This document shows, in pieces, positions 1 to 16,973 of a stretch of 23,358 nucleotides of DNA. The translations under genes were made by a program, and so were the position numbers. The stretch is taken from sequence record NZ_AP018531.1; one strand, given 5' to 3'. The stretch is from a plasmid. How positions within the stretch are numbered: the stretch's first letter is position 1; the number at the start of each line of letters is the position of its first letter. The notes under the pieces were generated by a model. That model worked only from the letters and a program-made list of their open reading frames with translations. It was not told the DNA's origin and did no database searches.

Positions 1-84
1 AAATGGTGGTTCTATGCGATTGCCAGTGCAAATGTAATCGTTGCGTACTTTGCATTTCAGGCAATGAGCGTGACTCTGCCATAA
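1..84 (+). CDS. tctB: C-terminal 27 codons plus stop of a TctB-family small permease, partial at the window edge. It is likely the 3' end of the tctB that begins at 22984 if the molecule is circular.
   Basis: Frame 1 is open from base 1 to TAA at 82-84. It translates to KWWFYAIASANVIVAYFAFQAMSVTLP, a hydrophobic terminal helix. An AGGAGG RBS and the tctA start follow 16 nt downstream, which is operon-style spacing. Confidence 0.5.
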   Translation, partial: KWWFYAIASANVIVAYFAFQAMSVTLP

Positions 85-100
85 GAAGGAGGAAGCGCAT

Positions 101-1606
101 ATGTTAGACAACTTGATGACCGGTTTGGCGCTGATGGCCTCGGTAGAGAGCTTCATTGCAATTTTAATCGGTCTGCTGGCAGGTATCATTATCGGTGCCA
201 TTCCGGGTTTGACTGCGGATATCGCGATCATCCTGTGCCTGCCGATTACATACAGTATGGAACCGATCCCGGCGATGCTTCTGCTGCTTGGCTTGTATTG
301 CGGCGGCACATACGGCGGCTCCATTACTGCAATTTTGATCAATACACCGGGTACGCCCTCGAGCGCAGCGACTGTGCTGGATGGTTATCCACTGACGCAG
401 CAGGGCAAGCCGCTGAAGGCTCTGACGATGGCGCTGTATGCCTCGTTTTTCGGTGGCCTGTTCAGTGCGCTGGTATTGCTGTTTGCTGCACCGAGCATTG
501 CACGTTTCACACAGATGTTTGGCCCTCCGGAGTATTTCTGCATCGCAGTGTTTGGATTGTCTATTATTGCAAGCATCTCGAACGGCAATATCATCAAGGG
601 TCTGCTCGGCGGCCTGATCGGTATTTTCATTGCACTGCTGGGACAGGATTCGGTCAGCGGTACGCTTCGGTTTACCTTTGGTATCCGTCGACTGGGCGCC
701 GGTATCCCGCTGATCGTTACGCTGGTCGGTCTGTTCGCAATTGCCGAATTGCTCAGCCGCTCGGATTATAATCCGCGTACAGATGCAACGCGTAAGCAGC
801 ATTTGAAGCTGGACCATGAGAAGCTGTCATGGGCAGAGATCAAGCGCTGCCTCAAAACAATGACGATTTCTTCGGTGATTGGTACGATTGTGGGTGCTAT
901 CCCGGGTACAGGCGGCGGCATTGCAGCTTTTATCAGCTACGATCAGGCGAAAAAGACCTCCAAATACCGTGATCATTTCGGTCACGGCGAGATCGAAGGC
1001 GTTTCCGCAACCGAGTCTGCCAATAATGCAACGACCGGTTCTACATTGATTCCGCTTACAACACTGGGCGTGCCCGGTGACGGTTGTACGGCAATTCTTC
1101 TGGGTGCATTTATGCTGCAAGGCATGGTGCCCGGTCCCTCCATGTTCAAGGAGCACAGCGATGTTCTATACGGCATTATGATCGGTCTTGTCATTGTCAA
1201 TATCCTGATGCTGATTATCGGTCGTGTGTTTACCCCGCTGTATGTCAATATCACACGCATTCCTTATGAGCTGATGAGCGCAATCATCATTGTTTACTGC
1301 ATTACCGGTGTCTATTCGAGCGAAGCCAGCACATTCCATGTACTTCTGGCGGTCATCATCGGCGCATTTTCGTTCCTGCTGCGCAAGCTTGGATTCGGTG
1401 TTGTACCGATCATCCTCGGCGTAGTTCTTGGTGATCTGGTGGAAACGAATTTCCGCAACTCGATGGTAATGTCCGGCAATTCTCTGTCCATCTTCGTAAC
1501 ACGGCCGTTCAGCCTGTTGTTCCTTGCGCTGGCTGTGCTTTCGATTGGAATGTTCTTCTACAAGGCAGCAAAGGACAGAAAAAAGCAAAAAACAGAGTTA
1601 AATTAA
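101..1606 (+). CDS. tctA: Tripartite tricarboxylate transporter large permease TctA (501 aa)
   Basis: Duplicated G-x-I-P-G motifs (IIIGAIPGLTADIAIIL and IVGAIPGTGGGIAAFISYD) typical of the TctA family. Polytopic hydrophobic profile. RBS AAGGAGGAAG sits 6 nt upstream of the ATG. Confidence 0.9.
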   Translation: MLDNLMTGLALMASVESFIAILIGLLAGIIIGAIPGLTADIAIILCLPITYSMEPIPAMLLLLGLYCGGTYGGSITAILINTPGTPSSAATVLDGYPLTQQGKPLKALTMALYASFFGGLFSALVLLFAAPSIARFTQMFGPPEYFCIAVFGLSIIASISNGNIIKGLLGGLIGIFIALLGQDSVSGTLRFTFGIRRLGAGIPLIVTLVGLFAIAELLSRSDYNPRTDATRKQHLKLDHEKLSWAEIKRCLKTMTISSVIGTIVGAIPGTGGGIAAFISYDQAKKTSKYRDHFGHGEIEGVSATESANNATTGSTLIPLTTLGVPGDGCTAILLGAFMLQGMVPGPSMFKEHSDVLYGIMIGLVIVNILMLIIGRVFTPLYVNITRIPYELMSAIIIVYCITGVYSSEASTFHVLLAVIIGAFSFLLRKLGFGVVPIILGVVLGDLVETNFRNSMVMSGNSLSIFVTRPFSLLFLALAVLSIGMFFYKAAKDRKKQKTELN

Positions 1607-1619
1607 AAAGGAGTTTCAG

Positions 1620-2897
1620 ATGAAGTATTATACTGAGCCGAGCCGGGAGATCCCGGTTGCGGCAGAAACGGAAGTCCTTGTTGTAGGTGGCGGCCCCGCA
1701 GGTTTCGGCGCCGCCCTGCACGCAGCACGCATGGGACGAAAAACGATGCTGATCGAGCAATACGGCGCGGTCGGCGGTGTGGCAACCACGGGCATTATGA
1801 GTCATTGGACCGGCAGACAGGACGGCGGCTGCTTTGAAGAGCTGCGCGCAAAGGCACGCGACTGTGAAGCGGAGCAGGTCATCAATCCGGAAAAACTGCG
1901 TATTTTGATGCTGGATATGCTGATGGAGGCCGGCGTTAATGTACAGCTGTACACAGGCTTCAGCGATGTCATTATGGATGGAAACCGCGTTGCGGGTGTA
2001 ATCACAGAGAGCAAATCCGGCCGGGAAGCGATCCTGAGCAAAATGGTGATCGATTCGACCGGCGACGGCGACGTGGCCGCACGTGCGGGCGTTCCGTTTG
2101 AAAAGGGACGTTCGACGGACGGCGGTATGCAGCCGATGACGATCATGTTCAAGGTTGCCGGCGTAGATATGGATCGCGCCATGTTCTTCTGGGGCTTTGA
2201 GGATACGGTCCAGCTGCCGGAAGGCGATCTGCAAACACTCGGTCGTCAGGAATTACCCTCTCCGGCAGGTCATATCCTGCTGTATCCTTCGTCGCTCCCC
2301 GGCGTTGTCACAGTCAACATGAGCAATATGACCGATGTGGACGGCACAAATGCAAGAGATCTGAATCGTGCTGAATACGTATGCAGAAAGCAGCTTCCCG
2401 AGATTATTGCATTTCTGCGCCGCCATGTGCCGGGATATGAAGGCTGTTATCTGATCGACAGTGCCGATGTGATCGGTGTGCGTGAAACCCGCCGGTTTGA
2501 GGCGAATTATCAGCTGAATGAGCAGGATATTGCGCAGGCTCGTACCTTTGAAGACTGGGTAGTTACCAAGTCGAATTTCTTCTTTGATCTGCACAATGTA
2601 GAAGGCGCCGGACTGGATGCCAATGGTGAATACAAGGCGTTCAAGCAGCCGAAGCCGTATACGATCCCGCTGCGCTGCTTTGTACCAAAGACGGTGGAGG
2701 GTATTCTGCTGAACGGACGCAATATTTCGGGTACGCATAAGGCGCACTCCAGCTATCGTGTTATGCCGATTGTAATGAATATGGGGCATGCTATGGGTAT
2801 TGTTGCCGCGATGTGTGTTGCACAGAACAAAAAGCCGTTGGAATTAGACATTCACGAAGTGCAGGATGAGCTGCGCAGAACGAATGTAGAACCGTAA
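1620..2897 (+). CDS. FAD-dependent oxidoreductase (Rossmann dinucleotide-binding N-terminus, PF12831-like), 425 aa
   Basis: N-terminal VLVVGGGPAGFGAALHAARMGRKTMLIEQYGAVGG dinucleotide-binding motif (GxGxxG ... E). RBS AAAGGAG sits 7 nt upstream. The gene abuts tctA by 13 nt, consistent with co-transcription. Confidence 0.8.
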   Translation: MKYYTEPSREIPVAAETEVLVVGGGPAGFGAALHAARMGRKTMLIEQYGAVGGVATTGIMSHWTGRQDGGCFEELRAKARDCEAEQVINPEKLRILMLDMLMEAGVNVQLYTGFSDVIMDGNRVAGVITESKSGREAILSKMVIDSTGDGDVAARAGVPFEKGRSTDGGMQPMTIMFKVAGVDMDRAMFFWGFEDTVQLPEGDLQTLGRQELPSPAGHILLYPSSLPGVVTVNMSNMTDVDGTNARDLNRAEYVCRKQLPEIIAFLRRHVPGYEGCYLIDSADVIGVRETRRFEANYQLNEQDIAQARTFEDWVVTKSNFFFDLHNVEGAGLDANGEYKAFKQPKPYTIPLRCFVPKTVEGILLNGRNISGTHKAHSSYRVMPIVMNMGHAMGIVAAMCVAQNKKPLELDIHEVQDELRRTNVEP

Positions 2898-2925
2898 ACT
2901 CAGGGAAGGAGATACAGTTAATATT

Positions 2926-3720
2926 ATGCTGAAACGAATGCCCCGCACGATTGCAGCAGAGCAGTCGCTGAAAAGCGGACTGTTCAAGCTGAGAGATATT
3001 GCCGCCTGTGCTTATGGCAATGGAAAGTGGATTCAATACCGGGATGCCGCAGGCACCTGTAAGCTTACGATGTCCATGGGAGAGATCGTAAAAAACGCCA
3101 GTGTGGAAGATGTTGAAGTGTCAAAGGCGCTTGCAGTGCTGTCGACAGGTACTCTGCCGGAGAACGGCGTAAAAACCATGGTGATTCTGCTGGTATCTCT
3201 GTTGGAAAAAGCGGAGAACCTCGGCTGCACGGAAGCGGATGTGAACGCAGTTTATGCGCTTCTGGAATATGCGGCAGAATATCTGCCAGCTATCGCGAAA
3301 GAGAATAACGGTGAGCTGCTCGGCAGCGTGCTGCCGTACATGACACTGATTAAGCCATTGAACAAACGGGCGCGTGAACTGGGCAATGAACGTGCAGCAG
3401 CAACGATGGAATATGCCCTGACAACGCTGCTCCTGACGTTTACCGAAGCCAACGGTGCAAATGGATACGGTGTATATGAACGCATGAAAGCACTGGCGCC
3501 CAATCAGTTTTTCAGCCTGAATCAGGTTGGCATTGAGAGGTCAATTTCCGTGGATAGTCCTTATACTGACATCTGGACGATGGGATTTGATCCCATCGAC
3601 GGAACGATTAAGGATTGTCGCGACATGGCATATCGCGATAAAGAGGAGGACGTACGAAACGTATTACTCGCGGTGAAGAATTCCCTGCAGGTTATTTGGA
3701 ATATTGTCGCAAGCCTGTGA
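2926..3720 (+). CDS. Hypothetical protein, 264 aa, no domain I can recognise. Last gene of the tct/oxidoreductase operon.
   Basis: The long ORF has coding-like composition. GGGAAGGAGA RBS lies upstream. A terminator follows at 3876-3920. Confidence 0.6.
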   Translation: MLKRMPRTIAAEQSLKSGLFKLRDIAACAYGNGKWIQYRDAAGTCKLTMSMGEIVKNASVEDVEVSKALAVLSTGTLPENGVKTMVILLVSLLEKAENLGCTEADVNAVYALLEYAAEYLPAIAKENNGELLGSVLPYMTLIKPLNKRARELGNERAAATMEYALTTLLLTFTEANGANGYGVYERMKALAPNQFFSLNQVGIERSISVDSPYTDIWTMGFDPIDGTIKDCRDMAYRDKEEDVRNVLLAVKNSLQVIWNIVASL

Positions 3721-3875
3721 TACGTGAATACACTGTCTGAGACAGCAGGTATGAAACCGCTCCAGCGATCAGCGTGTATTTACCCAATCTTCATGACCGG
3801 ATAAACAAATATCCGTCTCCTCCTGTTTGTTTTTCAGATCTCAGTTGTTGAAAATCATATCACCCTACTTTACCC

Positions 3876-3920
3876 AAAAGGAGCTTCCACGCACGGCGAT
3901 GGAGGCTCCTTTATTTTTCC
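3876..3920 (+). terminator. Rho-independent terminator after the tct/oxidoreductase operon
   Basis: Stem AAGGAGCTTCCA / TGGAGGCTCCTT (one mismatch), about 10-nt loop, then TTATTTTT. Confidence 0.5.
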
Positions 3921-3936
3921 GGCGCCCCGAACTGAC

Positions 3937-4045
3937 GCCGCCGCTTTCTCTCCCGGATGAGCGTAGACTTGCTGATGCCGGTCAGCTTAACAACCTGCGC
4001 GTAAGAATGGTCCTCAAGCAGAGCCATTGCATGGTTAAGCTGCAA
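3937..4045 (-). pseudogene. 3' remnant (about 36 codons, HTH tail) of a serine recombinase gene. It is a near-identical direct copy of the 3' end of the intact gene at 19289-19397.
   Basis: Visible alignment cgccgctttctctcccggatgagcgt(a/g)gacttgctgatgccggtcag... with only a few substitutions over about 108 bp. Similarity stops abruptly at 4046. No N-terminal catalytic region is present. Confidence 0.65.
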
Positions 4046-4190
4046 GATCGGCAGCGGTATCTTTTCCGCCATCATCATCGCCATGCTCGGCGCAGCTATT
4101 GTGCTGCCGCTCTATCGTCTGGATAGGATGTATCCGCCGCTCACAGCAGATTTGCAGGAGCAGGAGAAACACCGCCCTCTTTCGGATTGA
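4005..4190 (+). pseudogene. Stranded C-terminal tail of an unknown membrane protein (no start codon)
   Basis: The frame from 4005 to TGA at 4188-4190 encodes ...[47 protein letters not shown] with no upstream in-frame start. It is fused directly to the recombinase remnant. Confidence 0.3.
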
Positions 4191-4249
4191 ATCCATCCGG
4201 TTGCCGCAGCGCAAAACCGCTGACAGCCCTGCTTATGATTGGAGAACAA

Positions 4250-4306
4250 CCTAAAACAATGAAACGCCATCCGGCAGCGGATAACAAATCCGAGCCGGAT
4301 GGCGTT
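4250..4306 (-). terminator. Hairpin terminator downstream of the dehydrogenase remnant (minus-strand sense)
   Basis: Perfect 12-bp stem AACGCCATCCGG / CCGGATGGCGTT (4263-4274 and 4295-4306). A T-run follows on the minus strand (tcattgtttt). Confidence 0.4.
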
Positions 4307-4342
4307 ATTTGCTACTTTACAAAATCGATGGAGCCGTCATCG

Positions 4343-4561
4343 TTATTCCATCCACGGGTCGATGACGACCTTCATGCTTTCGCGGGTCATGCTGGCCTTC
4401 ACGGCCTGCTCTGCCTGCGGGAAGTGATGGCTGAACAGACGCTCCCACGGGAAGGTATCCTTGTGGCGCAGCATCCTTTCCATCACGGTTTTGTATTTAT
4501 TGTGCGTGTGATTCGTCATGCCGACAATACGCAGCTTGCACGGATTGAGATAAACGGCCAC
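4343..4561 (-). pseudogene. C-terminal fragment (about 70 aa) of a zinc-dependent alcohol dehydrogenase (MDR) family gene
   Basis: Translation ...LISHHFP..AVKASMTRESMKVVIDPWME matches the MDR C-terminus. The last about 30 codons are an inverted near-copy of 20310-20398. No N-terminal or Rossmann part is present. Confidence 0.55.
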
Positions 4562-4640
4562 GGTATACTCTCACTTTTATCGCCTGCATTGTCGGTAAAT
4601 CATCTGTATATCCTGTATTTCATAACAGAATCCAAGTGTA

Positions 4641-4676
4641 AAGTCACAAAGTTACAAATTCGTAACTTTGTGACTT
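4641..4676. repeat. Perfect 15-bp inverted repeat with 6-nt spacer (AAGTCACAAAGTTAC aaattc GTAACTTTGTGACTT)
   Basis: Read directly from the sequence. It lies 24 bp beyond the 3' end of the parA-parG operon, followed by TTTTTAACTTT. Confidence 0.7.
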
Positions 4677-4699
4677 TTTAACTTTAGTATTTCCGGCAG

Positions 4700-4939
4700 T
4701 TACGCAAAAAACTGATCGAGTGCCTGCCGTACCAGCTCGGACATATCGCAGTCGCGGTGGAAGGCTGCCGCCTTGAGCTGCTTATGCTGCTCCGGGCGCA
4801 GACGCACGGTCACCTGCACGGTGGAGGCTTTCTTCTTCTCCGCAGTCGGTGCGGCAGCTGTTTCCTGTGCCGGCTGCGGTTCCTCGTCCTTGCGGCCGAT
4901 CATATTCTTGAACATTTCCTCTGCACTGAGTCTTGCCAT
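4700..4939 (-). CDS. Small ribbon-helix-helix (CopG/ParG-like) partition partner or transcriptional repressor, 79 aa
   Basis: 79 aa, charged, with a C-terminal ELVRQALDQFF RHH-like motif. Start overlaps the parA stop. GGAGAAGGAGAGGG RBS. Typical small second gene of a type Ib par operon. Confidence 0.55.
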   Translation of the reverse strand: MARLSAEEMFKNMIGRKDEEPQPAQETAAAPTAEKKKASTVQVTVRLRPEQHKQLKAAAFHRDCDMSELVRQALDQFFA

Positions 4940-5754
4940 TACTGTTCCCTCTCCTTCTCCACAAACTCTTTGACGAAATTCAGACAGTCATTCACAAAAT
5001 TCCGGCTGGCCTCGGAAACGCGCTCGCCCTTGGTCTGTGCCTTGCTCTCAATGTAGTCAAACACGTTCTCCTGTACAGCCTGCGCTTCCTTGATGATCAC
5101 GTTGCTGCGGATGGTCGTTCGGTAAACGTCCGCGCCCATGTAGTCCGCGATTTTTTCGGTCAGCTCCTGAATGGTCCTGGTGACACGGGTGCGCTCGGTG
5201 CGCGTGAGCAATACGCCGTCGATCCTGAGCGCCGGATTGGTGTATTTCTTCACCGACTTGTAAGTATCATACAGCTGGGTGATGCCGGATGCCGCAAAGG
5301 TCTCCGCCATGGTCGGGATGAGCAGATAGTCGGCAGCCGTCAGCGCGTTCACGGTCAGCAGGCCGAGCGACGGCGGACAGTCGATGAGAATGTAATCGTA
5401 TGCCTCGGCTACGCCGGTCTGCTCGTCGCGCAGCTTCTCGCGGAGCGTCATCTCTTTGCCGACGTTGTGCAGCTCCTGCTCAATGCCCGCAAGGATGGTA
5501 TTGGCCGGAATGATATCGCAGCTGGGCGTGTGCTGGATGGCATCCCGCGCCGAGACCGTTCCCTTCATGACCTCGTACATGGTCGCGCTGTCCTGATTCT
5601 CGGCAGCTACCGACATCGACAGGTTGCCCTGTGGGTCGCAGTCGATCGTCAGCACGCTGAAGCCCTGCTTTTTCAGACCGGCCGCCAGAATGCCGGTCGT
5701 TGTGGTTTTTGCAACGCCGCCTTTCTGGTTGGCCAGTGCAAATATCGCTGACAT
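4939..5754 (-). CDS. parA: ParA/Soj-family partition ATPase (start at MSAIFALANQKGGVAKTT)
   Basis: Deviant Walker A KGGVAKTTT and an IDCDPQ motif. The internal ATG at 5754 has an AAAGAGGTGGAG RBS. The upstream ATG at 5772 has no RBS. Confidence 0.9.
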   Translation of the reverse strand: MSAIFALANQKGGVAKTTTTGILAAGLKKQGFSVLTIDCDPQGNLSMSVAAENQDSATMYEVMKGTVSARDAIQHTPSCDIIPANTILAGIEQELHNVGKEMTLREKLRDEQTGVAEAYDYILIDCPPSLGLLTVNALTAADYLLIPTMAETFAASGITQLYDTYKSVKKYTNPALRIDGVLLTRTERTRVTRTIQELTEKIADYMGADVYRTTIRSNVIIKEAQAVQENVFDYIESKAQTKGERVSEASRNFVNDCLNFVKEFVEKEREQ

Positions 5755-5778
5755 GTTCTCCACCTCTTTCAACTTTGT

Positions 5779-5860
5779 AAAGTTATAACTGTTTAACGTT
5801 ACTCTTATTATATACCTGTGCAGTTATAACGTCAAGACTGTGTAACTTTATAACGTTATT
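5779..5860. repeat. Iteron/parS-like cluster of GTTATAAC(G) palindromic repeats between rep and parA
   Basis: Copies at about 5782, 5823 and 5848, plus AACGTTA half-sites. The same 9-12-mer (GTTATAACGTTA) recurs at 8337-8381. Confidence 0.6.
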
Positions 5861-6145
5861 TCTTTCTATTGGTTCAGAGATTCATTCAAACCGTGTATTT
5901 TCTGCTCTTTTCTCTCCTTTTCTGTCAGGAAGATTGAGTAGTGAAGTTTCAATAAAGAAGTTTTAATAGGTAAGGATTTTAGTATATCAGCCTGTTTTGC
6001 ATCTGCTCAAAAAGCATCTTGTCTTTCAGCATACTGCCTGTAAACAGAGTACCCTGTAAAATCAGGGTAATGGTATGGCAGACAAAGAAAAATGACGGTC
6101 TTTCTGCCGTCATCGGTGTTTGGGGATGGAAATATGATTTTCCGA

Positions 6146-6179
6146 GCACGACCAAAAGCCATGAGGTCAATCATGGCTT
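6146..6179 (-). terminator. Intrinsic terminator after rep
   Basis: Perfect 9-bp stem AAGCCATGA / TCATGGCTT, loop ggtcaa. On the minus strand it is followed by TTTTGGTCG. A second hairpin (GACGGTCTTTCTGCCGTC) with a minus-strand T-run lies at about 6095-6125. Confidence 0.5.
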
Positions 6180-6185
6180 AAAAGG

Positions 6186-7376
6186 TTATTCGGTTTCCTG
6201 CGAATGGCGTTTTGCTTTTACGCGCTTGAGCCACTCCAGTTCCCAGTCGGCCAGCGGCTGCTCGGATGTGCCGGTGCTGACCGGCTCGGCCTGCGAAGGC
6301 TGCAGCAGCTTCTGATGGTAGGTATACAGGGAAGTCTGTAAGTATGCAACCGGGTTTTCAATGCGGCCGAAGTCGATCGTGACGCTGTTCAGAAAGCGTT
6401 CCATGCTTTCCTGAGAAATACGGCGGGAGACCTGCTCGCGGCTGTCCTGCGGGACCGCAGCGCCCTTGATGAACAGCTTGTCTGCGTACTTGATGTTGCA
6501 GACTGCCGTTACGACCGTTCCGGTCAGCTCGCTGCCGAACTGACGGCGGAGCGCGTCGGCGTTGATCTGCTGCTCGATCTGCCTGCGCAGCCTGCGGCGG
6601 ACGGCACGCGGCTTGTCCTTTTTGTTAACACACACGTTTTTACGGATGCGGGAAACCTGCGTTTTGATCTTCGCAAGGAAGCCGTCGATCGTGGCTACGG
6701 TGGAGACAGAGCCGTCAACGTGGTAGTTGGTCAGGTACGGCGTTTCCAGATCGGGTGTTTCGCAGAGCTTATATTCGTAGGTCCAGTGATTCTCCTGACC
6801 GGAAGGGAAACGGTGCTGCTTGAGCAGACCGGAAATCTTGAAGCGCTTCCAGAGCGTCGAGAAATGTTTCACTTTCTCCATGCAGAACGCGCGGATTCCC
6901 TCGGGACGGAGAACGAAGTCGGGAATCTTCATCAGATGGCTGACGAGGGCGAACAGTCCCTTGCTGGCAAGGGAAATGGTCTTGTCGCGCAGGACCGAGG
7001 TGGAAATGTTGGTGTAGTCGCGCTGTGCACCGGAAATGCAGGCAACATCACCGTTCGGGCGGTCAATGGACGGGGAATAGACGTAGTCCACCGGCTCGGA
7101 CGGGTGCTGCATCAGGTTATAGACATGACAGAACGCACCATTTTCCGACTGGGAGAAATAGTGCTGCAGGTATCCCTTTTGCTTGAGCTCCTTCCACGCC
7201 GCATTCAGCAGGTAGGCGCTGTCCGAGCAGGCATAGCCGAGACGGCGCTTGCTGAGCGCGAAATCCGGCAGGCCGACAAAAGACTTGATGACGGCAAACA
7301 GACCCTTGGCCTCGAGAGAAAGCGTTCTGTCGCGCAGAACTTCGTTATAGATTGTCGTGTAGCCGGCTGCGGACAT
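6186..7376 (-). CDS. Putative plasmid replication initiator with two tandem about 85-aa winged-helix-like domains plus a basic/coiled C-terminal region (396 aa)
   Basis: Internal duplication: Y-T-x-I-x-x-x-V-L-R-D-(R/K)-T-(L/I)-S-L-x-(A/S)-K-G-L-F-A-(V/L)... appears twice (residues about 7-80 and about 120-195). This resembles RepA_N or phage-replisome-organiser N-domains. RBS GGAAAGGAGGGAAAG. Sits immediately upstream of iterons and parA on the same strand. Confidence 0.55.
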   Translation of the reverse strand: MSAAGYTTIYNEVLRDRTLSLEAKGLFAVIKSFVGLPDFALSKRRLGYACSDSAYLLNAAWKELKQKGYLQHYFSQSENGAFCHVYNLMQHPSEPVDYVYSPSIDRPNGDVACISGAQRDYTNISTSVLRDKTISLASKGLFALVSHLMKIPDFVLRPEGIRAFCMEKVKHFSTLWKRFKISGLLKQHRFPSGQENHWTYEYKLCETPDLETPYLTNYHVDGSVSTVATIDGFLAKIKTQVSRIRKNVCVNKKDKPRAVRRRLRRQIEQQINADALRRQFGSELTGTVVTAVCNIKYADKLFIKGAAVPQDSREQVSRRISQESMERFLNSVTIDFGRIENPVAYLQTSLYTYHQKLLQPSQAEPVSTGTSEQPLADWELEWLKRVKAKRHSQETE

Positions 7377-7406
7377 TGCTTTCCCTCCTTTCCGATGGTC
7401 GATTTT

Positions 7407-7452
7407 TGCAGAAGAAACAAAAAATCGTCTGATGCTCTCACACCAGACGATT
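7407..7452 (-). terminator. Attenuator-like intrinsic terminator inside the rep leader, about 45 nt upstream of the rep start
   Basis: On the minus-strand RNA: stem AAUCGUCUG / CAGACGAUU (9 bp, 12-nt loop) followed by UUUUUUGUUUCUUCUG, then GGAAAGGAGGG and AUG. Confidence 0.45.
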
Positions 7453-7563
7453 GAAAAACCATGTCTAAATTCGTATCAAAAATCGAAGATTCGTAATGTT
7501 GCACAAGTAAAATGTGCCGTGTTAAGCAGAAAAATTGATTTTTGTCGAAAAACGCGCGTCTTA

Positions 7564-7592
7564 TTGACATAACCGCTTGTTGAATGTATAAT
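7564..7592 (+). promoter_or_regulatory. Consensus sigma-70/SigA promoter (TTGACA - 17 nt - TATAAT, with TG immediately upstream of the -10)
   Basis: TTGACA at 7564-7569 and TATAAT at 7587-7592, read directly from the sequence. Confidence 0.65.
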
Positions 7593-7598
7593 GATTAT

Positions 7599-7740
7599 AC
7601 AGTAAGCGGTATGCGCCATTTGGCGCGTTACTGGTCTCAGGTGAGTGAGATCTTACCGCCCGCTGGTGTTGGAAGCACCAAGTGGCGGATACCGTTTATA
7701 AAAGAGCTGATGCTTGCAGGCATTGGCTCTTTTGTTTTTC
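7599..7740 (+). ncRNA. Candidate about 140-nt small RNA (possible rep counter-transcript) from the consensus promoter to an intrinsic terminator
   Basis: No RBS-preceded ORF. Internal hairpins GCGCCAtttGGCGC and CCGCCcgctggtg...caccaagtGGCGG. 3' terminator stem AAAGAGCUGAUGC / GCAUUGGCUCUUU (13 bp including two G-U pairs) followed by UGUUUUUCC at 7701-7740. Confidence 0.35.
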
Positions 7741-7855
7741 CTGTAATTAAGAATACCATGGAAAATAAGGAATGTCAATCTTAATCAGGTGAAGTTGAAA
7801 AATACTCGGAAGAGTTGGTTTTTTTTTAGAATGAATCCGGGTTTTCCGGATATAC

Positions 7856-7884
7856 TTGCAATGCCGCCTGATATGCGGTATAAT
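7856..7884 (+). promoter_or_regulatory. Second near-consensus promoter (TTGCAA - 17 nt - TATAAT)
   Basis: TTGCAA at 7856-7861 and TATAAT at 7879-7884. A strong terminator lies about 40 nt downstream, so the transcript would be about 70 nt. Confidence 0.5.
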
Positions 7885-7923
7885 ATCAGTAAACGAATGA
7901 TGAGATTGCTCACTGAGCACACG

Positions 7924-7968
7924 AAAAGCCCCGGAGGTCACGACTCCGGGGCTTTTCTATTCTGTTTT
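7924..7968 (+). terminator. Strong rho-independent terminator
   Basis: Perfect 13-bp stem AAAAGCCCCGGAG / CTCCGGGGCTTTT, loop gtcacga, followed by TTTTCTATTCTGTTTT. Confidence 0.75.
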
Positions 7969-8325
7969 GGAGCAGGTGGCTTAGACCTGAGGCTGGCTAC
8001 CAGTTACATCTTGCCGTCCAGCCATTTGCAAATGCAGTATGCTGCTACGCTTGCCAGAACGGAGATTAAAAACGATGAGATAACGCTCACTAAGTCCCCA
8101 CTTTTGCTAACTGTATAGGGGAGCCTGTACCGTATAACATGGAGGTCGGATTGCAGCAAGGAAAGCCGGATTTTGAACTTCTCAGACTAAAAATTACTGC
8201 CTGGGATATATTCGCGGCGCTTGATCCATGCCGCGCAAACGGTCTCTTTATTATCTGCGGCTGCTCACAGCCGACCGGCATTTCCTCGATCAGCCGCCTT
8301 GATGGGTCGATATGCAGGACTTTTT

Positions 8326-8382
8326 TGTTATGTAAAGTTATAACGTTAAAAAGCTATGACGTTATAACGCTATAACGTTAGA
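8326..8382. repeat. Second cluster of GTTATAACG iteron/parS-like repeats
   Basis: aaGTTATAACGTTAaaaag ... gacGTTATAACGctATAACGTTAg. Shares the 12-mer with the cluster at 5779-5860. Confidence 0.6.
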
Positions 8383-8416
8383 TTGCGATGTATTTCTATT
8401 TTGGCATATATTATAC

Positions 8417-8452
8417 TTGACGATTCTAAATGTATTCTTATACATTGAATTA
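8417..8452 (+). promoter_or_regulatory. Possible promoter with overlapping GT-N-AC inverted repeat (AATGTATtcttATACATT), candidate GntR operator upstream of the disrupted gntR
   Basis: TTGACG -35-like hexamer, then the 7-bp-arm inverted repeat. FadR/GntR-type operators commonly have GT...AC symmetry. Confidence 0.3.
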
Positions 8453-8469
8453 AGCAAAGAAGTAGTAGA

Positions 8470-8614
8470 ATGGCTTTACAGGCACTCAAGAAAAGGGAGT
8501 CTTTTTCGGATAAAGCCTATCATATGCTGCGCGAAGCGATTCTGACCGGAGAACTTAAGCCGGGCGAACAGCTTACCGAAGAAGCGCTTTCCGCACAGCT
8601 TGGCATCAGCCGCA
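8470..8614 (+). pseudogene. N-terminal about 48 codons (HTH) of a GntR-family regulator, truncated by an IS fragment
   Basis: AYHMLREAILTGELKPGEQLTEEALSAQLGISRT is a canonical GntR wHTH. The reading frame degenerates right after ISRT (about 8614). No effector domain follows. Confidence 0.6.
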
Positions 8615-8946
8615 CACAGTCTATCGAGCATTTCCCATTTGCGCTGTTCTTCACTTTTTCGATGGCCCTGTCCCGCGACAAACGAGATGTTTTCTTTGCT
8701 TGCCTTCAGGTATTCCTGCAGATCCTTCAGCTTGTGCAGTCCGGTGGCTTTTTCCACCCTCTCCTGTACTGCCTGCAACTGCTTTTCCCCTTCCAGAAGC
8801 CACATAAAGTCTATTCGATACCGGCACGATTCTTCCGGCTTCCGGCTGGAATAGATCCCACATTGATATCCGTACACCATTACCTTGAACAGCACTCGTG
8901 GATCGACCTTCGATTTCCGTCCTTTCGGCGAATAGGCCCGATACAT
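8615..8946 (-). mobile_element. Truncated IS transposase N-terminal fragment (DUF772-type, IS1182/IS5-like)
   Basis: MYRAYSPKGRKSKVDPRVLFKVMVYGYQCGIYSSRKPEESCRYRIDFMWLL matches the N-domain pattern GRP..dP..mfK.l.ygY..gIySSRK.E......i.FmWL. There is no DDE catalytic region. The ORF only continues as antisense of gntR. Confidence 0.5.
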
Positions 8947-9059
8947 AAATCTGTTCTGTGCCGCAGAAAATAGGACTGCACCGATTGCGCGGTCAAAGCT
9001 GATATGCTACAATGATATTACTAAAAAACGTGCACGGCACAAAAAATAGGAGTGATCGC

Positions 9060-10313
9060 ATGGAGATCCAGCGAGAGGCATATCTGAACCAACTGATCGA
9101 GCGCAGGGACAACGGCATGATCAAGATTGTCACCGGCATACGGCGCTGCGGAAAATCCTATCTGCTGTTCACCATATTCAAGCGGTATCTGCTTGAAAGC
9201 GGCGTTCCGGAGGATCATATTATCGAGATCGCTTTGGACGGCATCGAGAACGAGGAGCTGCGCGACCCCAAGGTATGCTTCCGCTATATTACGGATGCCA
9301 TGCGCGGCGACGGGCCGTATTATCTTCTGCTCGATGAAGTGCAGTTCATGCCCCGGTTTGAGGAAGTTCTGAACAGCTTGCTGCGCATGAGCAATATCGA
9401 CGTCTATGTGACCGGCAGCAACTCCAAGTTCCTTTCCAGCGACATCGTGACCGAATTTCGCGGCCGCGGTGACGAGATACGCATTCATCCGCTGTCGTTT
9501 GCAGAGTTCTATTCGGTCTGGGACGGCGACTTTGACGATGCCTGGGACGAATATATGCTCTACGGCGGTCTGCCGCAGATCGTAAATTTTCAGAACGAAC
9601 GCCAGAAGGCAGACTATCTGAAAAACATTTTTGCTAACGTCTATCTGAAGGATGTAATCGAGCGCAACCGCATTCAGAACGATGCGGAGATCAACATTCT
9701 GGTTGACGTTCTGGCATCTGCGATCGGCGCGCCGACCAACCCGTCTAAAATCGCGAACACCTTTGCAAGCGAGCGCCAGATGAGCTACACCAACAAGACC
9801 ATTTCACAGCACATTGATTTTCTGGCAGATGCTTTTCTGATCGAGAAGGCGCAGCGCTATGACATCAAAGGGCGCAAGTATATCGGTGCCAATCTCAAAT
9901 ATTACTTCACCGACCTCGGTTTGCGCAACGCCCGGCTGAATTTCCGGCAGCAAGAGCCGACTCATATCATGGAGAACATCGTATATAATGAGCTGTGCAT
10001 TCGCGGTTATCATGTCGATGTGGGCATCGTTGAGGCGTTCGGCAAGGACAGCAGCGGCAAGCGCCTGCGCAAGCAGCTCGAAGTCGATTTCGTCGTCAAT
10101 CAGGCGAGTCAGCGATATTATATCCAGGTCGCCTACGATCTCACCTCGGAGGAGAAGCAGGCGCAGGAATTCAACTCGCTCCGCCATATCCCGGACTCGT
10201 TCAAGAAAATCGTCATCGTAAACGGCGTCCGCAAACCGTGGCGCAACGATGAAGGCTTCGTTATCATGGGCATGAAGTATTTTCTCCTAAACGCAGACAG
10301 TCTGGAGTTTTAA
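9060..10313 (+). CDS. AAA-family ATPase (AAA_14-like N-domain, DUF4143-like C-domain), 417 aa from MEIQREAYL
   Basis: Walker A GIRRCGKSY, Walker B LLLDEVQ. The C-terminal half has the DUF4143 architecture. AGGAG RBS sits 7 nt upstream of the ATG at 9060. The earlier ATG at 9012 lacks an RBS. Confidence 0.8.
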   Translation: MEIQREAYLNQLIERRDNGMIKIVTGIRRCGKSYLLFTIFKRYLLESGVPEDHIIEIALDGIENEELRDPKVCFRYITDAMRGDGPYYLLLDEVQFMPRFEEVLNSLLRMSNIDVYVTGSNSKFLSSDIVTEFRGRGDEIRIHPLSFAEFYSVWDGDFDDAWDEYMLYGGLPQIVNFQNERQKADYLKNIFANVYLKDVIERNRIQNDAEINILVDVLASAIGAPTNPSKIANTFASERQMSYTNKTISQHIDFLADAFLIEKAQRYDIKGRKYIGANLKYYFTDLGLRNARLNFRQQEPTHIMENIVYNELCIRGYHVDVGIVEAFGKDSSGKRLRKQLEVDFVVNQASQRYYIQVAYDLTSEEKQAQEFNSLRHIPDSFKKIVIVNGVRKPWRNDEGFVIMGMKYFLLNADSLEF

Positions 10314-10668
10314 GGCAATACCGCATAATTGAAAATGAGCGATGCTGCCAAGGCGGACAAGCAAGCCGGACTGTCGTGTTTCTATCTGCGGAAGCTTACC
10401 AAAATGGTAGAGGCGCCGCTGTTTTTTATGTGTATTTTACGTTTTTATGTTCCGGTCGATCTGTTCGTATCGCTCTGCGGCAACGATCCTGCTGTGGTAA
10501 AGGTCAGCGGCGACACCATCAGATTCCGAATCCGCTGACCGTCCATAACTCCCTTGCAGAGCTTGCAAAGGCAGTCGGATTTGACATCAAAGCGCCGACC
10601 GTGCCCGCAGAGCAGGGAATCAGTGAGACAGAGGTCGCGGCGGTAGTCAGCAGCGCCTTATAAAAGAT

Positions 10669-10760
10669 TGAAGAGTGGTGATTTTCTCCACTCTTTCTCT
10701 TTTGCGGGTATACAGAAAAAGAGTGGAAAGCGCTTCACTCTCCACTCTTAAATCTTCACT
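10669..10760. terminator. Pair of hairpins in the convergent gap between the ATPase and iolI (bidirectional terminators)
   Basis: AGAGTGGtgattttctCCACTCT followed by TTCTCTTTTG. Also AAAAAGAGTGgaaagcgcttCACTCTccactctt. Confidence 0.4.
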
Positions 10761-10768
10761 CTGTGAAA

Positions 10769-11641
10769 TCAGTCCGCCCAGTACTTTGCAACATGTGCCT
10801 TGGTAACCTCAGCGGCCTTCTTGATATTCTCCTCGTTGGACAGCTTGTAGTAGTCCGGACGGAACACCTCCATGGTGCAAACGTCGCCTTCAAAGCCGAT
10901 TTTCTTGAGGGTATCTGCGTAACGCTTGTGGTCGAGGCAGTCGCCCGGCTCGCCCGGCCACAGACGCTTCTCGTCGTTGTTGTAAGCAGCGCCGCACGGC
11001 ATATTCTCCATGCCGTTCAGGTGCCATACGAAAATCTTCTTGCCGTCAGCCTTCTCGAGAGCAGCCCACTCGGAAGCCATTGCATGGAAGTGGTACTGGT
11101 CGAGGGTGATGCCGACGAGCGGATGATCTACCTCAGTAACGATGTCGTAAGCGTACTCGAAGCGGTTGATGGACATGGTCGGTGCGCCGCAGAACTCGAT
11201 GGACAGCTTGATGCCGTGCGGCTCAACCTTCTTTACCATCTCCTTGAGAACAGCAACAGCATCAGCCTTGATCTCGTCAACGGTAGCCGGAACGGTCAGA
11301 TCCATGGACGGAACGACAACGATCATCTTGCAGCCCAGCTTGTTGCAGTCTGCGATGATCTGGTCGAGCTTTGCCATAACGGCGTCCTTTTCCTCCTGGG
11401 TCTGCTTCATGTTGAAGAAGATCAGAGCGTTGTAGGACAGCATCTTCAGGTGATGCTTCGGATCAGCAAACCATGCGCCGAGATCGTCGATGGTGTACTT
11501 GCCGGCAGCGATCTCGCGGTCGAGGCACTCGGACTGGATGTCGATGTAGTCAAAGCCGTACTTCTCGCACAGGTCGAGGTCTTCAAGTACGGAGTGGTTT
11601 TCGCAGAAACGGTTGCAGCCTTCGTTAAAACCGATTTTCAT
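10769..11641 (-). CDS. iolI: Inosose isomerase IolI (2-keto-myo-inositol isomerase; xylose-isomerase-like TIM barrel)
   Basis: Blocks align along the whole length with B. subtilis IolI from memory: MKIGFNE / MKLCFNE, LDLCEKYGFDYIDI / LELCEKHGYDYIEI, DQYHFHAMAS / DSFHFHAMGS, LEKADGKKIFVWH / LKQADGKKIFIYH, EVFRPDYYKLSNEE / ELFRPEYYKLTAEE. RBS AAAGGAG. Confidence 0.8.
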   Translation of the reverse strand: MKIGFNEGCNRFCENHSVLEDLDLCEKYGFDYIDIQSECLDREIAAGKYTIDDLGAWFADPKHHLKMLSYNALIFFNMKQTQEEKDAVMAKLDQIIADCNKLGCKMIVVVPSMDLTVPATVDEIKADAVAVLKEMVKKVEPHGIKLSIEFCGAPTMSINRFEYAYDIVTEVDHPLVGITLDQYHFHAMASEWAALEKADGKKIFVWHLNGMENMPCGAAYNNDEKRLWPGEPGDCLDHKRYADTLKKIGFEGDVCTMEVFRPDYYKLSNEENIKKAAEVTKAHVAKYWAD

Positions 11642-11779
11642 AGCAGTAACTCCTTTTAACGTATCAATTTCGCGTTGTAAAACGCGGTATAGTGGTTAAG
11701 GTGATATGCAAGGGCAGTAAAGCAGGAAGCTCTGCCACCCTTGCGAGTGAGTAGCAATGAATAGAAAATATGAGGTGGA

Positions 11780-12796
11780 TTACTTCTTGTAGAAGTCCGG
11801 GGTGCCGCCGGTAACAACCTTCTCCGGCACACCGGAGGTCTGGGACTTAACCAGAGCGTCAGCGGTGATGGAAGCAACGTAGCCGTCCCAAGCAGAGGAG
11901 CCGCCGGTCTCACCCTTGAGTGCGTGGTCAACCCAGTCCTGAATCTCTACATCGTAAGAATCGATGAAGCGCAGGATCCAGTTGTCCTCGATCTTGGTGG
12001 AAACCTCGTTAGCGTAGCGAACGGTCGGGAAGGACGGGCACGGCAGGTTTACAACGCCGTTCTCACATACAACCTCGCAGTTGATGTCGTAGCCGAAGCC
12101 GCAGTTTACGTTAACCTCGAGCATGTTGATGATGCCGCCCTTGGTCTTCATGATCATGATCTGCGGGTCCTTCAGCGCGTTCTTAACCTTGCTGTTGGTC
12201 TTCGGCATGATGCACTGAACCTCGTCCCACTCGTCGTTTACCAGCCACGGCAGAACGTCGATCTCGTGGATTGCGGTATCGGTAACAGCCATTGCGGTGG
12301 TGTAGTCATCGGCAACGCCGTCTGCACGGTGGGTGCACTTGATCACCATCGGGGCACCGAACTTGCCGGAGTCGATCAGCTCCTTGACCTGACGGTAGCC
12401 GCGGTCGTAACGGCGCATGAAGCCAACCTGTACGAGGTGCTTGCCGCCTGCCATCTCGGCCTCAACGATCTCCTTGCCGTCAGCAGCGGTGTTAGCCAGC
12501 GGCTTCTCGGAGAATACCGGCTTGCCGGCCTTGATCGCTGCCAGAACCGGACCCTTGTGGAACTGACCCGGGGTGGTAACTACAACAGCGTTTACGTCCG
12601 GATCGTTGATTGCTTCGTTGAAATCGGTGTAAACCTTGGTGCCGGCGCCGGCGATCTCAGCGCCCTTCTTTGCACCTTCTTCAAATACGTCGCATACAGC
12701 AACGATGCGTGCATTGCGGATGCGGTTCTGGATACGCTCGATGTGCTCACGGCCGATCATGCCGCAGCCGATCAGTGCAATGTTCAGATTTTCCAT
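11780..12796 (-). CDS. iolG: myo-Inositol 2-dehydrogenase IolG (Gfo/Idh/MocA family); start at MENLNIALIG
   Basis: Long collinear match to B. subtilis IolG from memory: LVQVGFMRRYDRGY, DDYTTAMAVTDTAIHEIDVLPWLVNDEW, LKDPQIMIMKTKGG, VNCGFGYDINCEVV, SYDVEIQDWVD, SAWDGYVASITADALVKSQTSG, PDFY. The ATG at 12796 has AAAGGA 9 nt upstream. The ATG at 12808 has none. Confidence 0.85.
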   Translation of the reverse strand: MENLNIALIGCGMIGREHIERIQNRIRNARIVAVCDVFEEGAKKGAEIAGAGTKVYTDFNEAINDPDVNAVVVTTPGQFHKGPVLAAIKAGKPVFSEKPLANTAADGKEIVEAEMAGGKHLVQVGFMRRYDRGYRQVKELIDSGKFGAPMVIKCTHRADGVADDYTTAMAVTDTAIHEIDVLPWLVNDEWDEVQCIMPKTNSKVKNALKDPQIMIMKTKGGIINMLEVNVNCGFGYDINCEVVCENGVVNLPCPSFPTVRYANEVSTKIEDNWILRFIDSYDVEIQDWVDHALKGETGGSSAWDGYVASITADALVKSQTSGVPEKVVTGGTPDFYKK

Positions 12797-12936
12797 GATA
12801 AAGCTCATCCTTTCAAAATATGCCGCTGTACGGCAGAGTTCAAGTCTAATGGATTATGTGCGAGTATTTCGGGAGCCGCAGCATTGCTGCGACCCCTGAA
12901 AACTCGGAAAGAGAAGAGAGATTGTGTGTGTCTGTT

Positions 12937-13920
12937 TTACGCGCGCTTTGCGTTCTTGCGCATGTCGAGTACAACCGAACCGACAATGATAACGCCCTTG
13001 ACAATGTTGGTCATGTTATCGTCTACCTTCAGCATAACCAGACCGTTATTGATAACGCCAAGGATCAGGATACCTGCCAGAACACCGGATACGCGGCAGA
13101 TACCGCCGGTGTGGGAGGTGCCGCCTACGGTAGCCGCAGCGATAGCGTCTAGCTCGTAGTTCAGGCCGGAGTTGGCCGGGTCAGCCGAACCTGCACGGCC
13201 TGCCAGCAGCATACCTGCAACAGCCGCACAAACCGAGCACCATACATAAACCATGATGAGGTTCTTTTCTACATTGATGCCAGCAACGCGGGCAGCCTGA
13301 TCGTTGCCGCCGATGGCATACACGTTTTTGCCGAAGCGGGTCTGCGTCAGCAGGAAGGCCGAGATCGCAAACATAACGAAGAATACCAGAATGATGACCG
13401 GAACCGAGCCGATTTTAGCAGAGCCAAGGAAACGGAACTCCGAGGACAGGGTGGAAACCGGGCGGCTGGTGTACATTTTTGCGCTTGCGCGGCAGATCAG
13501 CTGTGCGCCGAGCGTTGCGATGAAGGGCGGAATCTTGGTGTACGCGATGATCGCACCGTAAATAGCGCCGATGCCTGCGCCGATTGCCAGACCGATCAGA
13601 ATAACCAGCGGTGCGGGCAGGGTGCCCAGACCGGGGAATACTGCGTTGGCATAATCTGCCGGCTGAACCAGAGATGCCGTGATGCAGGCAACCAGGCCGG
13701 CCGATGCGCCGATCGTCAGGTCGATACCCTTGGACAGGATCGCGAACATAACGCCGAAGGCCAGAATACCCTTGACGGCCTCACCGGAGAGCAGCGTCAG
13801 CAGGTTGTTTACGGTGAAGAAACTGGGCTGTGCAACACCCATGATAATGACCATAGCGATCAGTACCAGCCAGATCGAGTTCTGCGACAGGAATTTTTTC
13901 TTGTCAAACGTCTTTTGCAT
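12937..13920 (-). CDS. ABC sugar transporter permease (CUT2/RbsC-like, BPD_transp_2)
   Basis: 327 aa, about 9-10 hydrophobic segments, typical monosaccharide ABC permease pattern. 18 nt downstream of the ATPase gene. Confidence 0.85.
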   Translation of the reverse strand: MQKTFDKKKFLSQNSIWLVLIAMVIIMGVAQPSFFTVNNLLTLLSGEAVKGILAFGVMFAILSKGIDLTIGASAGLVACITASLVQPADYANAVFPGLGTLPAPLVILIGLAIGAGIGAIYGAIIAYTKIPPFIATLGAQLICRASAKMYTSRPVSTLSSEFRFLGSAKIGSVPVIILVFFVMFAISAFLLTQTRFGKNVYAIGGNDQAARVAGINVEKNLIMVYVWCSVCAAVAGMLLAGRAGSADPANSGLNYELDAIAAATVGGTSHTGGICRVSGVLAGILILGVINNGLVMLKVDDNMTNIVKGVIIVGSVVLDMRKNAKRA

Positions 13921-13938
13921 ACCATTTACCCTTCTTTC

Positions 13939-15450: not shown

Positions 15451-15484
15451 TGCTTTTCACCCCAATATCTCTGCGTTTTTTTAG

Positions 15485-15510
15485 GAAGGGGACATGTGGA
15501 AATGTCCCCT
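15485..15510. other. Intra-operon stem-loop between the binding-protein and ATPase genes
   Basis: Perfect 10-bp stem AAGGGGACAT / ATGTCCCCTT, loop gtggaa. There is no U-tract on the coding (minus) strand, so it is probably an mRNA stabiliser or partial attenuator rather than a terminator. Confidence 0.4.
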
Positions 15511-15532
15511 TCGCAACATTCAGTGTCGGAAT

Positions 15533-16537: not shown

Positions 16538-16715
16538 TTGCTTTTACCTCATCTTTCTCAACTTTTTTCTTAGCCGTACACGTTCACATTTTTGAAAAAT
16601 GCGATTTACGCTTGCCTTGATTTAGTTTTACACTCTTTTTCGATGTGCGTCAACCGGATTTTTGAATTTTCACCAAATCACACAGACGAATCTTGCGAAA
16701 ACTGGTGATTCTGTC

Positions 16716-16730
16716 TGCACAAAATTGTGA
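16716..16730. promoter_or_regulatory. Operator-like near-palindrome TGCACAAAATTGTGA upstream of the ABC transporter operon
   Basis: One centre mismatch from perfect symmetry. Nearly identical to the site at 16974-16988. Confidence 0.35.
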
Positions 16731-16973
16731 TTTTATAAGCTTTGCACGACAGAGCGGGGGAATCGCTTATGCAAAACTACCCGCCTCAGATGCAGGATCT
16801 GGCTGTTGGTTCAATCTCATAACAACTCGGTATTCGTTTCGGATTTCTCGTGTTTTGCTCGTTTTACGGCGTTTACAGCAGACACATTGTATGAAAATAT
16901 GAACAAAACACGGAAGGTCCGGAAAAGAGTGCATTTTTGCGTGCACGGCTCGAATGAGCAGAATCCGTACACG

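Follow-up and report, generated by a model that had tools for sequence, protein, structure and literature searches.

Positions 3930–4700 of the plasmid in sequence record NZ_AP018531.1 hold a cluster of broken gene ends at the border between the partition and replication (par/rep) backbone and an 8-kb cargo arc with the tct transporter genes. The whole 23,358-bp stretch was analysed and is called the window; all coordinates are window positions, L-numbers denote relative contigs or loci, and P-numbers denote proteins of the sequence collection. We conclude, with a probability of about 0.8, that this segment is a non-coding recombination scar and that the cargo arc is toggled by homologous exchange between a resolvase gene end in the scar and the matching end of the intact resolvase gene on the plasmid.

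The cargo arc comprises the resolvase gene, its putative res site, a dehydrogenase pseudogene (MDR-B, for medium-chain dehydrogenase), a LacI-family gene, tctCBA, a gene for an FAD oxidoreductase and a gene for a 264-aa protein. Because the resolvase end in the scar (direct repeat 1, DR1) duplicates the 3′ end of the live resolvase gene (DR2) in direct orientation (107 bp, 94%), host homologous recombination would repeatedly cross DR1 with DR2 and split the plasmid into two circles. One product would be a replicating 15,360-bp circle without tct, resolvase and res. The other would be a 7,998-bp tct circle or, through unequal exchange, a tandem copy of the arc, and the reverse reaction could put the cargo arc back. 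Recurrent loss and regain would thereby make the cargo module a presence/absence polymorphism of the plasmid population. At least once, two diverged plasmid copies have become joined head to head through the inverted dehydrogenase ends of 103 bp.

Two repeated gene ends divide a circular plasmid

In alignments, relative contigs of 23.3–27.9 kb read through the window from 1 to 23358 and across its ends without a break, so the window is one full turn of a circle: a complete circular 23,358-bp plasmid of Agathobaculum/Butyricicoccus. The TctA-TctB-TctC-LacI run is uninterrupted in the resolvase-bearing contigs. Comparison of the window with itself by blastn, which was used for repeat detection, returned exactly two internal repeats, one direct and one inverted. 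The direct repeat pairs 3937–4043 with 19297–19403 over 107 bp with six mismatches and no gaps (94.4%, E = 2.5e-42), and the inverted repeat pairs 4316–4418 with the reverse complement of 20323–20425 over 103 bp with 19 mismatches (81.6%, E = 3e-22). Both are far beyond chance. An earlier sequence-only reading had noticed both by eye and placed them a few bases off: its direct pair (3937–4045 with 19289–19397) is real with the second copy shifted by 6–8 bp, and its inverted pair (4343–4430 with 20310–20398), correctly called the more diverged, has the span given above, which passes the stop codons by 27 bp and ends at 4418/20323.

The direct repeats divide the circle into a 15,360-bp arc (transporter tail, MDR-A, par, rep, iol and AraC; the K arc) and a 7,998-bp arc (resolvase, res, MDR-B and tct; the T arc). 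Because the window is a circle, the separation of 15 kb stated by the sequence-only reading describes one arc only, the other being 8.0 kb. That the repeats mark module boundaries holds, since they are located at the borders of the tct module.

DR1 (3937–4043, minus strand) is the 3′ remnant of a serine resolvase gene and covers the helix-turn-helix (HTH) domain, the last ~36 of 189 codons. The catalytic domain is wholly missing, and the remnant itself reads as a non-functional member of the resolvase family. Its peptide differs from the intact resolvase HTH by one substitution and by the tail, for the frame runs on into its own tail RQFGAPEK* with the stop codon at 3911–3913. Another plasmid family encodes a 196-aa resolvase (P0146) whose natural gene end shares homology with the tail-coding stretch 3918–3936 (78.6% over 126 bp), indicating that DR1 derives from a second resolvase gene, related to the resident one, and did not arise by copying the latter. 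The resident gene (19292–19861, minus strand) encodes an intact small serine resolvase of 189 aa with matches to PF00239 (E = 3.8e-35, residues 2–137) and HTH_7 (PF02796; E = 1.1e-5, residues 145–181), and its 3′ end at 19297–19403 is DR2.

Together, region 3930–4561 contains three pseudogene ends, of the resolvase HTH, an MFS_2 transporter and a medium-chain dehydrogenase (MDR-A). All three are shortened relative to the longer homologues found, and none appears functional as a gene. The resolvase remnant and MDR-A occur in every sublineage examined, a 42-kb relative included, with repeat identities across sublineages of 84–94% (direct) and 82–89% (inverted); the cluster is old and fixed. The three truncated gene ends, the relaxed constraint on MDR-A and the position of the repeats at the tct module borders bear out the sequence-only view of the segment as a footprint of past recombination.

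Reciprocal recombinants through the direct repeat

The direct repeats had been suspected of being able to mediate deletion, and both reciprocal junctions are present in public metagenomes. The hybrid open reading frames (ORFs) predicted for a crossover between the repeats were built and looked up by exact sequence in the collection, where both were found. The hybrid at the K junction, P0173 (MMMAEK...RERKRRQA), lies on 21 contigs with the order rep-parA-RHH-MDR-A-hybrid remnant-AraC-LacI-iol (RHH, ribbon-helix-helix), and the contig of K locus L042 measures 15,358 bp against 15,360 bp predicted for the tct-less circle. The hybrid at the T junction is P0167, the full resolvase with the remnant's tail (196 aa); it was matched exactly on 10 contigs, where the gene order is MDR-B-res-hybrid resolvase-264 aa-FAD. 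With L054, found by a pattern scan in a second collection, the T junction is present in 11 contigs altogether. This 7,903-bp contig runs from 403 to 4043, continues at 19404 to 23358 and proceeds to 318, which is the whole 7,998-bp arc closed, minus 84 bp. Both reciprocal products exist (K in L042–L049; T in L036–L041 and L054). Deletion occurs as had been supposed, but it is the 8.0-kb tct/resolvase arc that is lost, and the viable product retains the arc with rep, par and iol.

Crossovers were placed by the six mismatches that separate the repeat copies. In K contigs with window-like flanks (99–100%), the exchange lies in 3937–3964 (L042, L043 and L047) or in 4005–4035 (L044, L045, L046, L048 and L049). 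These intervals, of 28 and 31 bp, are the two longest identical stretches of the repeat. The T crossovers form the reciprocal classes, one in L041 and the other in L036, L037, L038 and L040, while L039 has a third pattern; both reciprocal products are present for each interval. The K junctions lie on differing iol-arc backgrounds (91–99% identity). A single fixed crossover position at the direct repeat, as expected of an att or res site, was not found, the recombinants with window-like flanks falling into at least two intervals. Because the crossovers vary, lie in the longest identical stretches and occur on differing backgrounds, they point to recurrent homologous, not site-specific, recombination, probably by a RecA-type mechanism. 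No flanking insertion sequence (IS) or transposase gene was found among the ORFs scanned, and the only internal repeats are the two gene-end remnants.

In L045, positions 1–763 join resolvase codons 1 to ~157 (19949–19390) to 4129–3937 (antisense transporter tail and repeat) and then to 19403 onward; this contig is either another recombinant or an assembly chimera of K and parental forms.

K forms, which carry neither the resolvase nor res, make up ~2% of assemblies. Loss from the 23.4-kb form is favoured by its ~50-fold excess and by the spread of recombinants over several sublineages. In the opposite history the 15.4-kb tct-less plasmid would be ancestral, a single homologous insertion of a tct circle would have turned it into the compound 23.4-kb plasmid, and the rare K contigs would be surviving ancestors. 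Deletion and insertion yield identical junctions, and K contigs with iol arcs as divergent as 91–99% could represent old lineages. We nevertheless regard this history as unlikely: two K crossover classes on window-like backgrounds mean at least two events, the 42-kb relative and all diverged sublineages hold the remnant together with the tct arc, and K forms are both rare and deprived of the resolvase and res, with their presumed multimer-resolution function.

The T junction could also be taken to mean that the 8-kb arc is a discrete, resolvase-carrying circular mobile unit, which would leave and enter plasmids actively, by site-specific or targeted recombination at resolvase-end or res remnants, with the scar as its attachment site. 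The closed junction gives back a full 196-aa resolvase whose C-terminal tail resembles the one that related resolvases naturally have, K-arc sequence is absent from the assembled, near-complete 7.9-kb T contig, the samples with T junctions differ from those listed for K junctions, and the resolvase and res block is common to unrelated plasmids. Against this, crossovers in at least two repeat intervals, each of long perfect identity, are a homologous signature; small resolvases work on res, and the plasmid has a single res-like region; and no recognisable replication or transfer gene was found among the T-arc ORFs scanned. Moreover, the 5′ part of the resolvase in T contigs is 99–100% identical to the window copy, which makes these contigs recent offshoots of the 23.4-kb form instead of a lineage of their own. 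An actively mobile arc is thus quite improbable, and we are equally doubtful of its extension, in which the arc is a self-contained cargo unit shuttling between Butyricicoccaceae plasmids with resolvase-end and res remnants as landing pads. Were the arc such a shuttle, the apparent junk would be a functional docking site, and the resolvase and res block a common currency of module exchange.

Dehydrogenase remnants and fusion through the inverted repeat

The arms of the inverted repeat belong to two remnants of probable medium-chain dehydrogenase genes. MDR-A (4343–4561, minus strand) is a 72-codon 3′ remnant of the zinc type (L-iditol/sorbitol dehydrogenase-like) that aligns to the C-terminus of the ADH_zinc_N proteins P0093 and P0095 and spans only the last ~70 of ~365 alignment columns. 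It has no Pfam match of its own, and all 74 of its 74 homologues are fragments, mostly of 64–77 aa, in the same plasmid family. Its last 76 bp with 27 bp downstream form one arm (IRa, 4316–4418). The other arm (IRb, 20323–20425) belongs to MDR-B (19984–20398 within the copy at 19961–20398, plus strand), a second pseudogene that is 5′-truncated just past res and carries two internal deletions. MDR-B matches ADH_zinc_N below threshold (E = 5.3e-4; 20.4 bits against a cutoff of 31.8), and among relatives of the same dehydrogenase pseudogene P0080 carries ADH_N and P0095 carries ADH_zinc_N (E = 4e-23).

MDR-A evolves unlike a gene under constraint. Between sublineages, its non-synonymous divergence (pN) is 0.05–0.064 and the ratio of non-synonymous to synonymous divergence (pN/pS) is 0.36–1.36. 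The corresponding values for parA are 0.005–0.008 and 0.05–0.12, and the RHH gene has a pN of 0–0.005; the pN of MDR-A is ~10 times that of parA. Variants carry a 6-bp indel, a 1-nt frameshift (in the fused lineage described below), a lost stop codon or a shortened frame. The high pN and pN/pS, the indel and the frameshift mark MDR-A, as read from its sequence variation, as a decaying pseudogene. For the resolvase remnant the case for relaxed constraint is not clear, with pN/pS values between 0.0 and 0.9 across lineages (0.15 against one lineage).

The internal deletion that the sequence-only reading had noticed in the dehydrogenase copy at ~19963–20398 proved to be two blocks, of ~65 and ~64 codons (alignment columns), missing relative to the less-degraded P0087, P0093 and P0095. 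Longer, 241-aa forms of MDR-B (P0078/P0080) in a close relative and in the 42.3-kb relative retain the ADH_N part, and the 42.3-kb relative has no resolvase at that spot. Since the two internal deletions are common to all these forms, the 241-aa ones included, they came first, and the 5′ truncation followed on arrival of the resolvase and res. Neither dehydrogenase was found in an intact, full-length form; overlapping fragments were combined to outline the complete gene. A more distant split dehydrogenase in a 43.5-kb contig (L026) stands in an unrelated context and was uninformative.

A 67-aa protein, P0064, led to three contigs from three samples (L016, L017 and L018), in which parA-RHH and the MDR-A 5′ part are joined within the shared 3′ segment to the MDR-B 3′ end, followed by LacI and tct. 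For L016 and L017, a simple inversion of the tct arc via the inverted repeat was considered and rejected: on its far side the arc is still joined to MDR-A and par as in the native plasmid, which makes the structure a head-to-head pair of par backbones with a single tct arc between them. In L016 (64.9 kb, ERZ13690576 opera_contig_49), which shows one fusion junction only, the inverted par backbones at 7414–10220 and 17600–19945 are 94.8% identical over 2351 bp, and the left one lacks window 6685–8155, the rep 5′ half with its upstream region. Judging from this arrangement, L016 is a fusion of two diverged plasmid copies via the inverted repeat, as if one replicon had been inactivated after the fusion.

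In some lineages MDR-B upstream of LacI bears an MDR-A-type 3′ end (QAEQAVKASM...; P0070 in L023, 2020–2253). P0070, with an MDR-B 5′ part and an MDR-A-like 3′ end, was considered as a reciprocal inverted-repeat recombinant and rejected as such, for it sits at the normal MDR-B position and is an allele or conversion variant. The MDR-A-type ends at this position suggest gene conversion between the inverted-repeat arms.

Origin of the scar

Upstream of the intact resolvase gene lies a putative res (19862–19983) with repeated GTTTTGA-type motifs. Within it, an imperfect palindrome, AGTTTTGCAACC GG TGGCGAAACT (19944–19967), is the likely crossover subsite; the motifs and the palindrome are conserved in another plasmid family. 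The resolvase and res block (19299–19966) is 90.9% identical to that of an unrelated plasmid family and the homology stops at the palindrome, which is what an exchange at the res crossover site would leave. The unrelated family (L030–L035) encodes a 3096-aa protein and sugar-acid genes.

MDR-B starts (~19984) ~16 bp past the palindrome. At the other end, the joint between DR1 and the transporter gene (4043/4044–4046) has at most 2 nt of microhomology and has the form of an illegitimate joint. The MDR-B start, the homology break and this joint lend support to the earlier proposal that site-specific or illegitimate recombination assembled the element.

We tentatively favour, as the likeliest source of the scar, a resolvase-mediated fusion of two res-carrying replicons. 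A later deletion would have taken the 5′ part of the second resolvase gene together with its res, run into the transporter gene and thereby frozen the fusion. Such an origin fits the direct-orientation resolvase sequences flanking the tct arc, the 94% identity of copies with different natural 3′ contexts, the single surviving res and the illegitimate joint to the transporter gene. Alternatively, a tct circle may have been inserted by homologous recombination into a backbone that already bore the remnant.

Several points weigh against a scar that toggles the cargo arc as we describe it. Every recombinant junction was taken from an assembly of short metagenome reads, in many cases at a low coverage of 2–3x, and single contigs could be chimeric; this worry is met in part by the 21 K and 11 T contigs from different studies and assemblers and by two full-length products of the predicted size. 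The T junction cannot tell a free circle from a tandem duplication or a multimer, and the junctions alone do not give the direction, so that deletion from the 23.4-kb form as opposed to insertion into the 15.4-kb form is inferred. With identical junctions in L017 and L018, the inverted-repeat fusion may go back to one event, and the frozen cointegrate is only one of several histories that fit.

Transporter tail, hairpin and palindrome

The stranded membrane-protein tail between the two repeats, another observation of the sequence-only reading, is the C-terminal remnant of an MFS_2/GPH-type sugar transporter gene (4044–4189, plus strand), comprising 48 codons for the last transmembrane helix and the cytoplasmic tail. 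The peptide alone has no family match, and the assignment rests solely on a longer remnant in L028, a 967-bp contig in which the homology extends ~85 bp or more further upstream and matches PF13347 (MFS_2; E = 2.7e-7, 29.9 bits against a cutoff of 27, profile positions 317–383 of 427). There, what lies ahead of the remnant is the start of a divergent xylose-isomerase-like gene, in place of a resolvase end. L029 was left out as an error-ridden long-read assembly. A word-indexed search for the transporter parent found four short remnants only, and an exhaustive HMMER search of 1.84 billion representatives found no convincing full-length or intact parent. Comparison with relatives for intact ancestors gave longer homologues but no intact dehydrogenase or transporter parent.

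Between the convergent transporter and dehydrogenase remnants lies a GC-rich hairpin at 4262–4305 (AACGCCATCCGGC...GCCGGATGGCGTT), with terminator-like matches at 4265–4286 (minus strand) and 4288–4300 (plus strand). It is probably the original shared bidirectional terminator.

In the spacer between MDR-A and the par operon (4562–4699), a perfect palindrome with 16-bp arms (AAAGTCACAAAGTTAC-6-GTAACTTTGTGACTTT; 4640–4677, plus strand) is followed by TT.A.TTT and is terminator-like on the plus strand. As a terminator or insulator it could block transcription entering from the tct side; alternatively, the RHH partition protein may bind it. A role as a repeated centromere motif was rejected, no above-chance repeat being found elsewhere on the plasmid. 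The stretch 4400–4800 is a local divergence hot spot, with 18–24 differences per 200 bp against 0–8 in the flanks. Among sublineages the register and spacer of the palindrome vary, and its surroundings are 3–10 times more diverged than the flanks.

Retention of the remnants for a function, be it as small proteins from the 55–57-codon HTH ORF or the 72-codon dehydrogenase ORF or in termination or a centromere role for par, would suit the intactness of both ORFs on more than 1000 contigs, the calling of a 72–74-aa ORF in lineages down to 74% identity, the remnant pN/pS of 0.15 against one lineage and the conserved hairpin and palindrome, but is very unlikely given the tenfold pN, the pN/pS of 0.4–1.4 and the indel, frameshift, stop-loss and short variants of MDR-A, the lack of an evident Shine-Dalgarno sequence upstream of the HTH ORF, the unrepeated palindrome, and a low remnant pN/pS that is expected if the documented recombination swaps segments with the live resolvase gene.

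Gene content and distribution of the plasmid

The par operon encodes an RHH protein (4700–4939) and ParA (4939–5772), both on the minus strand; beyond it lies a gene for a 396-aa Rep-like protein with PHROG replication-initiator matches (6186–7376, minus strand). Further genes encode GntR and AAA_14/DUF4143 proteins, and the inositol/sugar (iol) arc encodes AP_endonuc_2, GFO_IDH_MocA, ABC transporter, LacI and AraC proteins. A short frame right after AraC (18948–19043; KRLYGIEQDPMEIWSTQYAAMLEALAAADVR*), read as a stranded N-terminal piece of a sugar- or glycerol-kinase-like protein, found no Pfam support and was left unconfirmed. The tct cargo begins at 20826 on the plus strand with a LacI-family regulator (20826–21869), TctC and the start of TctB (to 23358) and continues over the circle origin (1–3720) with TctA (101–1606), FAD_oxidored (1620–2897) and the 264-aa protein (2926–3720) at the operon end. 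The latter has no Pfam, NCBIfam or PHROG family and always accompanies the PF12831 FAD-dependent oxidoreductase.

With L003, L005, L009, L010 and L042 compared, the iol/sugar arc (9300–19290) is 88–94% identical between plasmid variants that share 97–100% identity in the par/tct arc (1–6500), which makes the population of plasmids a mosaic of arcs with separate histories. In variants of 27.9 and 24.7 kb (L001 19472–20573; L002 19614–20573), a block encoding Flavodoxin_2, DUF6472 and a hexapeptide acetyltransferase replaces the AAA_14/DUF4143 gene beside AP_endonuc_2, which is a further cargo-swap point.

The exact resolvase protein is indexed in 504 collection blocks, with contigs of up to 20–50 kb and many of 23.3–23.8 kb. 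The exact Rep, the 72-aa MDR-A ORF and the 55-aa remnant ORF each occur on at least 1000 gut-metagenome contigs. Named carriers of the exact ORFs are metagenome-assembled genomes of Agathobaculum butyriciproducens and Butyricicoccus sp. GAM44. A megablast of the whole window against PLSDB gave no match, hence no annotated reference plasmid there, and a literature search for Agathobaculum and plasmid returned no description of the present one. The Rep search of genome contigs gave four loci only; a contig of Agathobaculum hominis M2 carries a Rep of 79% identity and lacks the remnant cluster.

Relation to known systems and significance

The kind of feature described here is well known: a small serine resolvase with res, pseudogene remnants, and repeat-mediated deletion or fusion. 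RecA-dependent deletion and duplication between short direct repeats are known in plasmids, small resolvases act at res, and backbone-versus-compound plasmid variants have been described in gut metagenomes as plasmid systems. As in RecA-dependent deletion, two direct repeats of ~100 bp yield a deletion derivative that replicates and a second circle that does not, with crossovers in the longest identical stretches; as in plasmid systems, copies of a constant backbone differ in whether they carry a cargo module. Unlike in those cases, the repeat is the dead 3′ end of a second resolvase gene and neither an IS nor a designed duplication, and with the deletion the plasmid loses its sole intact resolvase as well as res.

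Resolvase/res cointegrates (Tn3-family, multimer-resolution or frozen) share with this plasmid the small serine resolvase, the upstream putative res, the directly repeated resolvase sequences flanking an insert, and a break of homology between unrelated plasmids at the res palindrome. Here, in contrast, there is one res-like region, the second copy is 107 bp of coding 3′ end, and there are no transposase or terminal inverted repeats. With a single res-like region and so short a second copy, the present-day exchange would be homologous and not catalysed by the resolvase. As with IS26-type translocatable units, the cargo can be closed as a circle with one repeat copy and could re-enter a replicon bearing the same repeat, but no transposase is present, the exchange points vary, and the circle is known here from assembled junctions.

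Because the mechanism is textbook, the value of the finding is documentary and not conceptual. What is new is that both reciprocal isoforms and a fused form are documented in a very prevalent gut plasmid, which is among the more often assembled elements of a common butyrate-producing gut genus. A dead gene end of 107 bp suffices to make an 8-kb transporter/oxidoreductase module a recurrent presence/absence polymorphism, and an inverted remnant of 103 bp can fuse diverged plasmid copies. The plasmid thus offers a checkable example of cargo turnover and plasmid fusion in gut plasmid populations, and in metagenomic plasmid catalogues its 15.4-kb, 23.4-kb and larger fused forms are to be read as isoforms of one system and not as separate plasmids.

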